Shown: positions 27,001 through 34,905, numbered from the stretch's first letter. The stretch: DNA of 64,000 nt from Bradymonadales bacterium (GCA_007693605.1 REDG01000024.1:13013-77012), one strand, 5' to 3'. A program made the numbers.

Positions 27001-30000
27001 TGAACAAAGGCGACCCGTTAAATATGCCGCAACTCAGACTTTCGAAGCTGTATCAGATAGCACCTAAGTGATCTTAAAGGTTCACGAAGGCAAGCCTTCA
27101 ACATGGGATTGAAAAGATAGGTCCGATCGACCCCTAGATCAACTCGCCAGCCTTCCGTTAATCTAACTCACTGTATTTCTGAACAACAAATTCAGATCCC
27201 GCAGAATGCTGACTAACTCCCAGCTCGATATTGGCCAGAAAGAAATCAAGCTCCGCCTGGGCTCTTTCCAGATCTTCAGCAGGAAGCTCATTGATAAACT
27301 CAGGCGGAAGCTCAGCCCAAACGGAGCGATAGCCGGAATGATAGAGTTGCTGAGCGAGAGGGTTTTTCATATAAGTGCTCAACACGGTTCGGGTCTTGTA
27401 TTCACGGGCCATTCGAGCCGCAAGCCATGTCACCAGATTTCCCAAGCCGGGAATGGAGACATGATGACCTTGCTCGACAAGCTCAGACGCAACAAATGCC
27501 GCCCCGATCACATGATAATAACGAGCCTCAACTCCGCCGGGACAGTTCGCATTGTATTTCAAGCAGTTTTCAGTTGCGATCTCAACCGCTCGAATCGCAT
27601 CTTTGTCCGGCAAGACACCGCCCATGGATGCCGGATGATAGAGGAGTGATGTACGCGAAGGCTTTAAGGCGTTAAGCCGTTTCAGTTTGCTCGCAGTCAT
27701 CTCAGAAATATCTTCAGGAATGGGGTAGGCTTCAATCCGATCATCCTGCCCGAAGGTTGCCAAAATCAAAAATGAGGAGGGAAGATCAGCATTCGTGTGC
27801 GCCTGTGCCAATGAAAAAAAATCGAGCGGACAGCGGTCGGAAAGTTTTGGCACAGCCGGCTCCATCTCCGAGTCACACTCTCGTAAGCGAGCGTAAAATT
27901 GAAGGCTCTGCTCTAACAACTCAGGTTCGCTGACAAGTCGCTCTAAAATAAACTGCCGCAGCGCAACATTCCCCTCAGTGAAACGATAGCCTGCTTTGTA
28001 GTCGAGACCCGCCTTGTAGAAGACAATCTGATGGGCAGCGTGGATTGCGCCATTGAGCATCGCAAGATCCCGTAGCCCCCCACCCTCTGCTCGCACCTTT
28101 GAAACGATTTCCGAAATCTCATGCAGTAAAGAATGGTCAGCTCGGCTCTCGCTCCCACTCAAGCTCAAAGCCAGACAAAGGCAAGCGCTGCCAAGGCAAA
28201 AAACCGCTATCAATGACCGGCCAAAGAGACCCATAGGGGCTTACGAAATAGCAGAAAGCCTCTGCTTGTAAAATGGGCCCCTGCAAGCCATACAGCCCCC
28301 AAGTGCGGCAATTCGCTACAGCTCCCCCTGCCCCCCCCAACCAGAATAAGCCCCAGTTGCCCATGGCCTTGAGTGTGGGAGAATGCTTCTATCCTGAAAA
28401 CACAATGCCCAGCTATGAAATGGATGAGGATTGACCCCACATGAAAGTGAACAGGTGGCCGCGATGGTTGAACACCTATCATGACTTTCCGGTCATGATG
28501 AAAGCTTATTTCTCAAGGGTCAGCTTTCTCCTGTGGCCCCTTCTGCTTTTGTACGGCATGGGGTGTGGCGCATTGATTTACATTTACTATCTGATTTGTA
28601 AACACACTTGTTCAATTGAAGTCCGTATACCGAGCAATATGCCTTCCTCCTATATCCGATGCGTATGGCACCAAAACTTCAACCTCTTCTTAACCGCTTC
28701 CCCTCGATTTCAGCGTGAGGTTTGGATGAATCACCCTCAGCCTTACATGATTCCCTGGTACTTTGTTTCAAAGTTATTGGGAGTCTTTAAAATGATTCCG
28801 GGTTCCTCAGGTCACAGTGGCCGAATCGCGGCAGACCACATTGTAGGCTTTTTGCGGCAAGGATATTGTACAAGCGTGCTTCCAGATGGTCCAAATGGCC
28901 CGCCAAGAACACTCGAGAAGGGCATACTCCATATGGCACAACAAGGAGGGGTGCCAATAGTCCCGATCATCGTAAGGGGGACAAAGTGCATAAAGTTAAA
29001 GTCCTGGGACTCAAAGCTCCTTCCGATTCCATTCGTCTCTAAAATTCAAATTCAATACCTAACCCCCACCTATGTCCAAGAAAGTGAATTCGTGTCGGCA
29101 GAGCGCGATCTTGTGTCGAAGTTAAATCTATAAGTTTCTTGCTTGGGGCCAAGGCCGATTGTACTCGGGAGCCCGTTGACAATACTCCATAAAAACGGCA
29201 TTATTATGGAGTATGTTCCACAGAGAATTCAGCCCCCTAAAATCACGCAGCTTTTTTCTCCTGGGGGCGCGGGGAACTGGTAAGTCGACTTGGGTGAAAG
29301 GGGAGTTTACGAAAGACTTCCACTACATTGATCTACTCCAAGAGAAATTTGAATCTCGCTACCAACGAAACCCCGACCTACTCGAGGCAGATCTTAGGGC
29401 TTTAAAGCCCAAACCCATCTGGGTGATTATCGATGAAATTCAAAAGGTTCCAAAGCTTCTGGATATTGTCCACCGACTCATCGAGTCGAGCAAAATGAAG
29501 TTTGTCTTGACGGGCTCCAGCGCGAGAAAACTCAAACGCCAATCTGCTAATCTCTTGGCGGGAAGGGCCAATGTCTACGAGCTTTTCCCCTTGAGTTGTC
29601 GTGAGTTAGGAGATGATTTTAAGCTCGACGAGATCCTCTGTTGGGGCAGCCTTCCAAGCATCTTTGCTCTCAAGAGTGCCCGAGAGAAATCTAGCTACCT
29701 CAAAGCCTACTGCCAGACCTATTTAAAAGAAGAGATCCTCATTGAGCAGCTTGTAAGAAATGGTCAAAGCTTTCGTGACTTTCTACTTCTTGCGGCTCTT
29801 GAGAATGGCAATAGTCTCAATTTTTCAAAGATTGGCAGAGATCTCAATGTCGATGTCAAATCTGTCCAAACTTTTTTCTCAATTCTTGAGGATACTTTAC
29901 TTGGATTCTACCTACCCTCCTTTCATCGTTCCTTGCGAAAATCACAGAAGAAACAGCCTAAATTTTATCTTTTCGACACTGGTGTGAAGCGCGCCATGGA

Positions 30001-33000: not shown

Positions 33001-34905
33001 AAACTAATATCACGGTGACTCTGCATTCCACATACTTTTGACCTTCTGGTCTCGTTCGAGGTCCCTCCACATCGGGCGTCAAAATAGCATCGACCAATTG
33101 ATCCTATTCACCAATTATCTATAAAGTATAGTAATTTCAATTGTTTACACTGTGTTTGTTGAATAGAATCAGTCAATTGATTTTATTCGCACAAGATGAG
33201 ATTCTGATGCTGTAGATGCGGCAAATCCCAAAAGAAAAGATACATCAGAAGATCAAGGCTCTGAATTCCCATTGGGAAAAGGGAACCATCGATTCTGAGA
33301 CAAAGGCCCTAAGGAAAAGGCCTTACTTCAGTCTGTTTTTCCCTCTAACCACTCAATTCGAAGTAAATAGAGCATTGATTCTATTAGGACCGCGTCGGGT
33401 AGGGAAAACTGTCCTCCTTCATCAGGTAATCCAAGAGTTCATTGATTCCGATAAAGACCCCAAGGAACTGATTTATCTTCCGCTAGATGAGCCTCTTTTT
33501 TACTCGCACTCACTCGAAGATCACTTAACTCTTTATCAGGAAGCCATCGGTGCCTCTGACTTGAAAAATCGAGTGATTATATTTGATGAGATCCAGTACA
33601 TGAAGGACTGGGATGTTCAACTCAAGATATTGGTGGACCGCTTCAAGGGTACAAAGTTTATCGCCTCAGGTTCGGCGGCGGGTGCATTGCGAAGGCGAAG
33701 TAAAGAATCTGGCGCAGGGAGATTTAGTGACTTCCTTCTGCCTCCACTCACTTTTTACGAGTACCTGGATCTTCTGAATTTAATAAATGATTTGTTCGAA
33801 TCCGCTGAAGGACAGCCAAATCGCATTAAGGATATTTTAAAACTCAATGACGAGTTTATTAACTACCTTAACTACGGAGGTTTTCCAGAGGCCATTTTCA
33901 GCCCGAGCGTTCGACAAAACCCAGATCGATTTTTGAAGCAGGACATTATCGACAAGGTGTTGCTGAGGGACTTGCCCTCGCTATACGGAATAGAAGACAT
34001 TCAAGAACTCAACAGATTGTTTCACTATTTAACTTATCAGACTGGCGGCGAAATCAGCTTAAAAGAAATTTCAAAAAACTCTGGAGTCGCGAACAATACA
34101 ATCAAGAGATACCGAGAATATTTGGAGGCCGCGTTCTTGATTCGCCCGGTCCATCGAGTTGATGGATCTGGAAAAACCTTTAAGCGGATGAATTTCTTTA
34201 AAGTCTACCTTACCAATCCGTCTATGTATGCGGCCCTTTACGGTTTGATATCGAGAGATGATAGTCAGCTTTTAGGCTCGCTTGTCGAGACTGCCATTTT
34301 TAGTCAGTGGATGCACAACCCTGAATGGTTGGACAGTCTATATTACGGGCGGTTTCGCAATGGGGAGCTTGACCTCCTTCATTTGAATAAAGATTTTTCA
34401 ATTCCATGGGCTCTTGAAGTAAAATGGAGCGACCGCTATAAGGATAATATAAACGAATTAAAGAAACACTTAGACTTCTGCAGGCAAAATGAAACAAGTC
34501 ATTTAATTGTGACGAGCAAAACCAACTCGTTAGAGACTAAGATTGATAAGTCACTTCGATTGAGTATCATTCCAGCCGCTCAGATTTGTTTCTTTATTGG
34601 ATACAACCTAATCCATGGAAGAGGATTGGAGCCTGCAAAACATGTCGCAAGCTAAGATATGCCCAGGGGCGGAATCGAACCACACTGATTATCCTGCTGC
34701 GCTACCGCGCAGCTAAATCTAGGGATAGCTGAAAGCTCCCGCCTCGCTGGCGCTCGGACTTTGTGGGGTCGCTTTCAGACACTCAGATTTTCTACTGAAA
34801 ATCTCGGCCGATGCTTCCATCTCCGCACATAAATAAATTGAAGGGCTCACCCTTTCAGGATGAACCCTTCAATTTGCCCAGGGGCGGAATCGAACCACCG
34901 ACACG

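Follow-up and report, generated by a model that had tools for sequence, protein, structure and literature searches.

The 64,000-nt stretch of Bradymonadales bacterium DNA analysed here (GCA_007693605.1, REDG01000024.1:13013-77012, one strand; hereafter the window) holds, next to a tRNA-Phe gene, a block of seven genes at 28.4-34.7 kb in which a hipBST toxin-antitoxin (TA) operon stands between two ATPases with AAA_14 and DUF4143 domains. We consider it probable that this block, which has no integrase and a distinct composition and occupies the tRNA-proximal end of a variable region on the downstream side of tRNA-Phe, is a mosaic of accessory modules that were acquired separately. It would be a mosaic, and not one co-transferred unit, because its homology to relatives starts and stops at the edges of the 1.62-kb hipBST cassette. 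A sequence-only reading had proposed a genomic island delimited by attachment (att) sites derived from the tRNA 3' end, and had thought a cooperative defence locus conceivable; its further description of a 'decayed or rearranged island' is a fair one, given the distinct composition, the variable region, the lack of an integrase and the hipBST kin that reside in tRNA-Phe elements. The islet is an ordinary, well-known kind of tRNA-linked accessory-gene remnant, a routine example of how accessory genes accumulate beside tRNA genes and lose their mobility functions.

For the comparison of composition, open reading frames (ORFs) of at least 150 amino acids (aa) were treated as genes; tRNAs were called with ARAGORN and Rfam (RF00005), domains with Pfam and NCBIfam/TIGR, and defence profiles with PADLOC. 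Comparison loci are numbered L001-L101, and comprise relatives that share synteny on the tRNA-Phe side together with hipBST relatives (L099, L100 and L101). No close relative of the source organism was found in the collections searched (GTDB representatives, metagenomes and 5.8 billion proteins): the best match to IspG in GTDB-representative genomes had ~60% identity, the best metagenomic relative of the kinase encoded beside tRNA-Phe had at most 61%, and the next-best homologue of this kinase among the 5.8 billion proteins had 55%. An exact-protein look-up returned one further assembly of the same organism only, broken at tRNA-Phe.

A deviant block in a variable region

Composition sets the block apart from the rest of the window. 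Segments of 6.2 kb that start at 28401-28501 have the lowest guanine-cytosine (GC) content of the 64 kb (0.444; median 0.492), and the one starting at 28501 shows the largest tetranucleotide deviation of the whole stretch, whilst the seven block genes have GC contents of 0.424-0.463 against 0.493 +/- 0.019 for the other 43 long ORFs. The earlier impression that the DNA from the DUF374 gene to tRNA-Phe is AT-richer than its surroundings was borne out, if to a moderate degree. Codon usage is weakly atypical, with the lowest score of the window in the DUF374-like gene. Within the block GC content is uneven, at 0.465 over 28441-31363, 0.432 in the hipBST cassette and 0.417 over 32985-34659, and the left boundary at the DUF374 gene is set by composition alone. 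The block has no integrase or recombinase gene, as the sequence-only reading had held: no integrase domain was found in the scanned longer ORFs (at least 127 aa) of 12.7-34.7 kb, amongst which 15556-17424 (622 aa) was covered by precomputed matches only, and tblastn of the integrase of L100 (described below) against the window returned noise only (expect value, E, 0.47).

On the right-hand side the locus is conserved, the order SerRS-hydrolase-CDF transporter-IspG-kinase-tRNA-Phe recurring in Bacteriovoracaceae-like relatives, and on the left the conserved cluster yggS-nadK-PP2C-rapZ-metK-ahcY corresponds to 6384-12571 of the window. The distance from this cluster to the kinase or tRNA-Phe is 0 kb in L003 (counted from the kinase, as no tRNA-Phe was found there), 3.7 kb in L013 and about 6.2 kb in L046 and L004, and the distance to tRNA-Phe is 22.3 kb in the window; the genes that lie between differ in every lineage compared. 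Because both the distance and the intervening genes vary by lineage, tRNA-Phe is a synteny breakpoint with a variable region downstream, and the block is the tRNA-proximal, compositionally deviant third of that region. Queries drawn from 12.7-34.7 kb of the window (the long ORFs and five shorter ones) found nothing downstream of the tRNA-Phe of relatives; the only relative matches came from two flagellin/FG-GAP ORFs (13.7-17.4 kb), and these are found on the opposite side of the locus. Judged by the gene order of distant relatives, the whole stretch from 12.6 kb to the tRNA is lineage-specific. The comparison of gene order that had been proposed as a check found the block absent from all relatives that have the tRNA-Phe flanks, relatives that are themselves distant (IspG ~60%, kinase at most 61%) and differ over the whole of 12.6-34.9 kb.

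Pfam supports the accessory gene content first read from the sequence, namely two AAA_14/DUF4143 ATPases, a secreted-type hypothetical protein and a TA operon, all at or near where they had been placed. From left to right, the block opens with a DUF374-like membrane protein (28441-29133, plus strand; GC 0.463; 25.6 bits in Pfam, just under the cutoff of 26.8), followed by the first ATPase (ATPase1; 29213-30367, plus strand), the hypothetical protein (a 193-aa gene call at 30566-31147, plus strand), the hipBST cassette on the minus strand and the second ATPase (ATPase2; 33216-34655, plus strand). The hypothetical protein has no Pfam, NCBIfam or PADLOC family match; its ORF extends from 30518 to 31147, and bears the signal-peptide-like sequence MFRIFLSLILFTSCLVNVSTGYAQ from the 17th codon.

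tRNA-Phe and a repeat on one side of the block

The sole tRNA gene of the window, by both ARAGORN and Rfam, is an intact tRNA-Phe (GAA) at 34875-34947 on the minus strand (RF00005, 71.2 bits), with its 3' end facing the block; given this strand, DNA integrated at the 3' end would lie at lower coordinates. The block ends 220 nt from that 3' end, immediately downstream of it. The 24-mer TGCCCAGGGGCGGAATCGAACCAC has exactly two copies in the window, at 34660-34683 and 34875-34898, in the same orientation, where shuffles give a chance expectation of 0 matches. It reproduces the end of the tRNA (positions 50-73), with most of the T-stem, then the T-loop and the 3' acceptor strand up to and including the discriminator; this region of a tRNA gene, between T-stem and 3' end, is the part commonly used by tRNA-targeting integrases. 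The exact duplicate of the tRNA-Phe 3' end that had been noticed is therefore present, with its distances corrected: the copy begins 4 nt (not 5) past the TAA stop of ATPase2 (34653-34655), and sits 191 nt (not 190) beyond the tRNA-Phe 3' end. Further copies had also been suggested as something to look for, and a search over the 64-kb window found only these two, with no third at up to 3 mismatches or by blastn-short at word size 7. A 9-nt match at the end of ATPase1 (30356-30364) was considered as a distal copy and rejected (E = 17, blastn-short).

It is the geometry of this pair that matters. Moving away from the tRNA, one meets a 191-bp spacer, the 24-nt copy, ATPase2, hipBST, the hypothetical protein, ATPase1 and DUF374, in that order. 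Both repeats are on the tRNA side, and enclose 34684-34874 only (191 bp, consisting of a terminator hairpin and tRNA-like debris), whilst all seven block genes lie outside the pair, beyond the distal copy. The classic attL/attR signature that the sequence-only reading had seen does not survive this arrangement: because the repeats enclose the spacer alone and there is no copy on the far side, an attL/attR reading is inapplicable to the 6.2-kb block as a unit. The 24-nt repeat marks the tRNA-side junction of the block only, not both ends. A more general caution follows, in that a repeat of a tRNA 3' end is no island boundary until the DNA it encloses has been checked.

The 24-nt copy does not stand alone, as it forms part of a 56-nt pseudo-tRNA-Phe (34660-34715, minus strand) that joins the exact T-arm/acceptor copy to a D-arm-like hairpin and is without most of the anticodon arm; the hairpin (34692-34715) matches tRNA positions 8-31 at 20/25, a score that 0/500 shuffles reach. 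Directly after the tRNA lies a terminator-like inverted repeat (34835-34875, minus strand), with a 19-pair stem followed by the T-rich tract ATTTATGT (5/8 T). A degenerate copy of tRNA positions ~31-64 lies inverted in the spacer, running from anti-T-arm to anti-anticodon loop (34794-34826, minus strand; local alignment z = 6.7 against shuffles), and includes, within a small hairpin, an exact 10-nt antisense match to positions 31-40 of the anticodon arm. Upstream of tRNA-Phe, and outside the block, are two tandem 95/96-nt units (34948-35138, minus strand), each of which opens with tRNA positions 1-17/19, continues with a GC hairpin and holds a 12-14-nt perfect antisense copy of the D-arm (TGCTCTACCGAC[TG]). 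Neither the pseudo-tRNA nor the spacer debris is called as a tRNA by ARAGORN or Rfam; at the gathering cutoff and at E <= 1 alike, Rfam recognises the true tRNA only, and the pseudo-tRNA and upstream units match nothing credible. The upstream units and the pseudo-tRNA fold weakly better than shuffles (z = -0.8 to -2.65), and a search across lineages gave no shared RNA structure for them, and no structured-RNA evidence.

In three other lineages whose downstream genes differ (L005, L013/L015 and L046), the gene is likewise flanked by pieces derived from tRNA-Phe, which are absent from the flanks in L001, L014, L016 and L017. In L005 a 3' copy lies 118 nt downstream of tRNA-Phe, and two units lie upstream. 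On the downstream side, L013/L015 carry an inverted T-arm together with a 12-nt copy of the 3' end, and on the upstream side an antisense D-arm; L015 has tandem 126-nt units. The tandem units upstream of tRNA-Phe in L005 (11928-12155) and L015 (707-960), about 107-126 nt long, are of other sequence than those of the window. Because such fragments flank this tRNA in three lineages without the genes of the block, the 24-mer does not appear to be a signature of this particular block. In L013 (~9617-9690) and L015 (~529-602) the T-loop of a pseudo-tRNA is split after GGTTCG by an insert of ~29 nt and then resumes with the 3' end, a layout shared with the integrase-adjacent pseudo-tRNA of L099 (see below), which ties the tRNA debris to a family of tRNA-Phe elements. 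Several assemblies, of this organism and of related ones, break inside, or within a few to ~150 nt of, tRNA-Phe (L012 at its end; L093, L095 and L098 at their starts). These independent breaks suggest repeats or strain-level variation at this point and, taken with the recurrent tRNA debris, suggest a recombination hot spot.

The hipBST cassette and the two ATPases

In the HipBST family, HipT is a HipA-type kinase toxin restrained by HipS, and HipB is a DNA-binding autoregulator. The cassette of the window occupies 31364-32984 on the minus strand (1.62 kb including the operator/promoter region), and its three-gene operon hipB-hipS-hipT runs from 32870 to 31367. hipB (32664-32870, minus strand) encodes an HTH_3 protein by Pfam, with TIGR03070 above cutoff; hipS (32344-32667, minus strand) encodes a 107-aa Couple_hipA protein (Pfam 3.7e-27); and hipT (31367-32347, minus strand, in an ORF that extends to 32392) encodes a 326-aa HipA_C protein (Pfam 1.2e-42). 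The stop codon of hipB and the start of hipS share 4 nt, as do, in the gene call, the stop of hipS and the start of hipT, and both TIGR03070 and TIGR03071 score above their cutoffs in the hipBST proteins. HipS is a stand-alone HipA N-terminal subdomain and HipT a kinase core without that subdomain, in which GVQRKLS, GNADMHLKN and APAYDL (Gly-rich loop, catalytic loop and Mg-binding motif) align with Legionella HipT. Gene order, overlaps and domain split are those of HipBST from E. coli O127:H6 (PDB 7AB3-5) and Legionella pneumophila (8EZR/7VKB). The HipT of the window is nearer to the Legionella type (E 4e-52 against 8EZR/7VKB) than to the E. coli O127 type (E 9e-14 against 7AB3), with its activity predicted from sequence. 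Upstream of hipB, at 32881-32980, three palindromic TATACC(C)-N-GGGTATA boxes form direct/inverted repeats inside the conserved cassette shared with L099, and are probably HipB operators. As a predicted TA module, hipBST would serve either to stabilise the islet or in growth arrest, and would do so without involvement of the ATPases.

Of the whole block, this cassette alone has close relatives elsewhere, and nothing else is shared with L099, L100 or L101. It is 83.8% identical to L099 7707-9325 over 1622 nt, and 71% identical to L100/L101 at the nucleotide level; HipB, HipS and HipT are 91, 96 and 85% aa identical to the L099 proteins, HipT having homologues at 85% and at 73% identity. For core genes, by comparison, the best public homologues reach 55% for the kinase, ~60% for IspG and 75-77% aa for AhcY and PP2C. 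Homology of the cassette extends to 3 nt past the hipT stop and to 114 nt upstream of hipB; the hipBST of L099 lies in a different gene context from that of the window, and has a similar GC content (0.434, against 0.432 in the window).

The surroundings of these relatives point back to tRNA-Phe. Positions 1-30 of L100 are the last 30 nt of tRNA-Phe (positions 44-73; GTGTCGGCGGTTCGATTCCGTCCCTGGGCA), after which follow a tyrosine integrase (Phage_integrase), an HTH_17 Xis-like protein, a 300-aa protein, a TrwB/FtsK-like ATPase, a small ORF, hipBST and a sigma-54 activator. L099 has a backbone in common with L100 (300-aa protein 40%, FtsK-like ATPase 74% identical) and extra cargo. At its other end (15620-15691) it carries the 3' half of a pseudo-tRNA-Phe, from the anticodon loop to GGTTCG, then a 30-nt hairpin-containing insert and then CGCCCCTGGGCA; the tRNA-derived bases match the tRNA-Phe variant of the window exactly, and the pseudo-tRNA directly adjoins an integrase fragment 67% identical to the L100 integrase. 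No tRNA-like copy that could serve as attR was found after hipT in L100 or L099. Against viral contigs, the L100 integrase gave a lone 20%-identity match, which is uninformative. The block accordingly shares cargo, at 71-84% nucleotide identity, with integrative elements at the same tRNA. Because each of the three nearest hipBST loci has tRNA-Phe 3'-end sequence no more than a few kb away, and an integrase is present in two of them, we infer that the hipBST of the window descends from cargo once carried by an integrative element at tRNA-Phe, the backbone of which was later lost.

Both ATPases combine AAA_14 with DUF4143 (Pfam), show Walker A/B and D...E-x-K motifs, and match the PADLOC class PDC-S01 over their full length (E 2e-58 for ATPase1 and 7e-53 for ATPase2; 1e-53 to 1e-58 as the range of the model for the two). 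They share the AAA_14-DUF4143 fusion, the single-gene architecture and the full-length profile match with PDC-S01 (COG1373), a class described as an ATPase fused to a PD-(D/E)XK domain (PMC12988326), with DUF4143 listed in the PD-(D/E)XK superfamily (PMC3424549). PDC-S01 is amongst the commonest candidate 'defence' genes in prokaryotes, with experimental validation pending (PMC12988326), and one representative was not among the protective systems against T4, T5 and T7 (bioRxiv 10.1101/2024.09.26.614923); the class is itself a 'guilt-by-embedding' candidate, and the two copies of the window are distant from one another. Indeed, at 23% identity ATPase1 and ATPase2 are family members and not recent duplicates, so that calling them paralogous, as had been done, is right as to family and loose as a label. 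The best homologues of ATPase2 are 58-59% identical and come from many phyla, the best representative homologue of ATPase1 is 57% identical, and no solved structure was found for ATPase2 by sequence. In the two ATPase2 homologue contexts examined, the gene is solitary with no TA module nearby, in one case beside transposases and in the other between miaA and a gene for a major facilitator superfamily (MFS) transporter. Near the closest hipBST loci (L099, L100 and L101), no DUF4143 gene was found. Because the kin of ATPase2 are solitary and the hipBST loci are without DUF4143, there is no comparative support for an ATPase-HipBST system, and the adjacency looks like accretion within an islet; PDC-S01-type genes would stand beside hipBST by accretion, not design.

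Competing explanations

Could the whole 6.2-kb block nonetheless be one element that entered through the tRNA-Phe 3' end, with the 24-nt copy as one att site and an integrase that has since decayed? A repeat of the tRNA 3' end does lie at the edge of a low-GC block, next to the ATPase2 stop, the block is compositionally distinct as a whole, and the relatives of its hipBST ride tRNA-Phe elements. However, the geometry largely refutes the idea, with both copies on the tRNA side and the spacer alone enclosed, and neither the mismatch search nor short-word BLAST supplied a far-end copy; in addition, kinship to elements is confined to the hipBST cassette, the sub-blocks differ in GC content, and the ATPases are unrelated beyond family level and unlinked to hipBST elsewhere. 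We regard such a single classic island as very improbable. Barely credible, in our view, is the proposal of a cooperative defence locus, in which both DUF4143 ATPase-nucleases and HipBST would constitute one anti-phage system, with sensor or effector ATPases flanking the kinase toxin. The genes are adjacent and in an islet, both ATPases match PDC-S01 strongly, and HipT and HipS have weak PDC-M03A/B matches in PADLOC; set against this are hipBST loci without a DUF4143 gene, ATPase2 homologues without a TA neighbour, an unvalidated class whose tested representative gave no protection, and two ATPases of low mutual identity, each divergent or convergent to hipBST with no shared operon.

A further explanation dispenses with integration at the tRNA altogether: the tRNA pieces would have arisen by local tandem and inverted duplication followed by decay, and the block would consist of native, lineage-specific, AT-richer genes into which only the TA cassette had hopped. 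The place of the 24-nt copy within a longer, degenerate tRNA-like segment with D-arm similarity fits such a history, as do the inverted tRNA piece in the spacer, the tandem 95-nt units with tRNA 5' ends upstream, the similar debris beside different downstream genes in L005, L013/L015 and L046, and a codon usage that is mostly host-like. Yet the 24 nt are perfect where the rest of the pseudo-tRNA is at ~80% or less, a pattern that uniform decay would not be expected to give and that suits an identity block of the att kind, and this identity block covers precisely the part of the tRNA, from T-stem to 3' end, that integrases commonly target. Likewise, the L099 pseudo-tRNA-Phe 3' half sits beside an integrase gene in a layout common to the L013/L015 debris, and the block is the compositional extreme of the window; on balance, we think this history unlikely. 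It is also worth considering, as a distinctly unlikely alternative, that the tRNA-Phe flanks of Bacteriovoracaceae-like Bdellovibrionota may be a conserved, non-accidental, tRNA-derived architecture of which the 24-mer is one component and not a random scar. Upstream, the architecture would consist of tandem leader units that begin the tRNA 5' end anew and hold a perfect antisense D-arm copy, and downstream, of antisense T-arm pieces and direct 3'-end pieces. The flanks could represent either an unusual multi-part attachment region for dedicated tRNA-Phe elements, or leader/trailer antisense regulators of tRNA-Phe maturation.

We therefore return to the mosaic of separately acquired modules. 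Under this explanation, hipBST would have arrived as a discrete 1.6-kb cassette, the cargo of small elements that insert at the tRNA-Phe 3' end, and the recombination and transfer backbone would have been lost or replaced in the genome of the window. The two AAA_14/DUF4143 genes would be independent, single-gene ATPase-nucleases of the widespread, horizontally scattered PDC-S01-type family, and candidates for a role in defence. The 24-nt repeat would be the intact 3' part of a pseudo-tRNA, most likely an attR-like footprint of site-specific recombination at tRNA-Phe; this pseudo-tRNA would mark where the block joins the tRNA side, in the manner of an array built in tandem or by accretion, and the repeat pair would delimit a 191-bp remnant. 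Arrival on an element, deletion of the backbone and the pseudo-tRNA as a recombination footprint are all steps that we infer, and for the parts other than hipBST acquisition would be indicated by composition and patchy family distributions only. Compared with tRNA-linked islands, integrative mobilisable elements and relics of the cis-mobilisable element (CIME) type, the block likewise lies at a tRNA 3' end, with a tRNA 3' repeat from T-stem to discriminator, an atypical composition, an accessory cargo (TA, candidate defence) and cassette kin in the intact-looking L100 element. On the other hand, it differs from them in having neither integrase nor excisionase and no distal repeat, in that its genes lie outside the 191-bp repeat pair, and in its mosaic content. 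The locus would offer a case of a HipBST cassette that travels as a discrete 1.6-kb unit from one tRNA-Phe-associated element to another, in a lineage of predatory bacteria that has been little sampled.

Several points weigh against the mosaic as we describe it. For most block genes, neither the GC content at third codon positions (GC3) nor the synonymous codon usage departs from the host range; of the profile that had been suggested as a check, the GC part singled out the block and the codon part mostly did not. Because of this host-like codon usage, the acquisition, if real, would be old or from similar genomes. Considering that the best kinase homologue of the protein search is only 55% identical, general rearrangement could account for the differences in gene order from such distant relatives. 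The case for descent from an L100-like element is circumstantial, because the window contains no distal att copy and no remnant of the backbone, none having been found when the integrase, Xis-like protein, 300-aa protein and FtsK-like ATPase of L100/L099 were compared with it by tblastn. L099 might stem from a closer relative and not from a transfer partner, and the pseudo-tRNA could be a local tandem duplication instead of the product of an integrase.

Some smaller observations concern the neighbourhood of the block. The gene to its left (27158-28234) encodes a protein with a signal-peptide-like N-terminus and no Pfam or NCBIfam match, and may be what had been taken for trxB; the trxB gene that had been named as a neighbour was not found, no thioredoxin reductase being seen near the block. 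The DNA of the block has no matches to phages, and weak matches (72-78%) to plasmids, inside hipB/hipS and to Bacteroidota plasmids only. Farther left, the adjacent, paralogous large proteins at 13685-15493 and 15556-17424 combine a flagellin N-terminal region with FG-GAP repeats; L001 and L017 have homologues of them at other positions near this locus. Just downstream of tRNA-Phe, an ISL3-family transposase fragment is present in the closest relatives that bear the kinase (L014 1000-1740; L096/L097 1265-1736), another sign of a site that collects mobile DNA. In L003 (13571-13637) the kinase and the ahcY homologue are directly adjacent, without an intervening tRNA-Phe, and L004 (8196-8265) has a tRNA-Phe-like sequence, 83% identical, with no ARAGORN call; the tRNA-Phe of this locus may be lost or decayed in some lineages such as these. 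Finally, proteins identical to those of the window carry the NCBI label 'MAG: Bradymonadales bacterium' (MAG, metagenome-assembled genome), and the syntenic relatives recovered are all Bacteriovoracaceae or Bdellovibrionota MAGs; given these relatives, the label Bradymonadales may be off.

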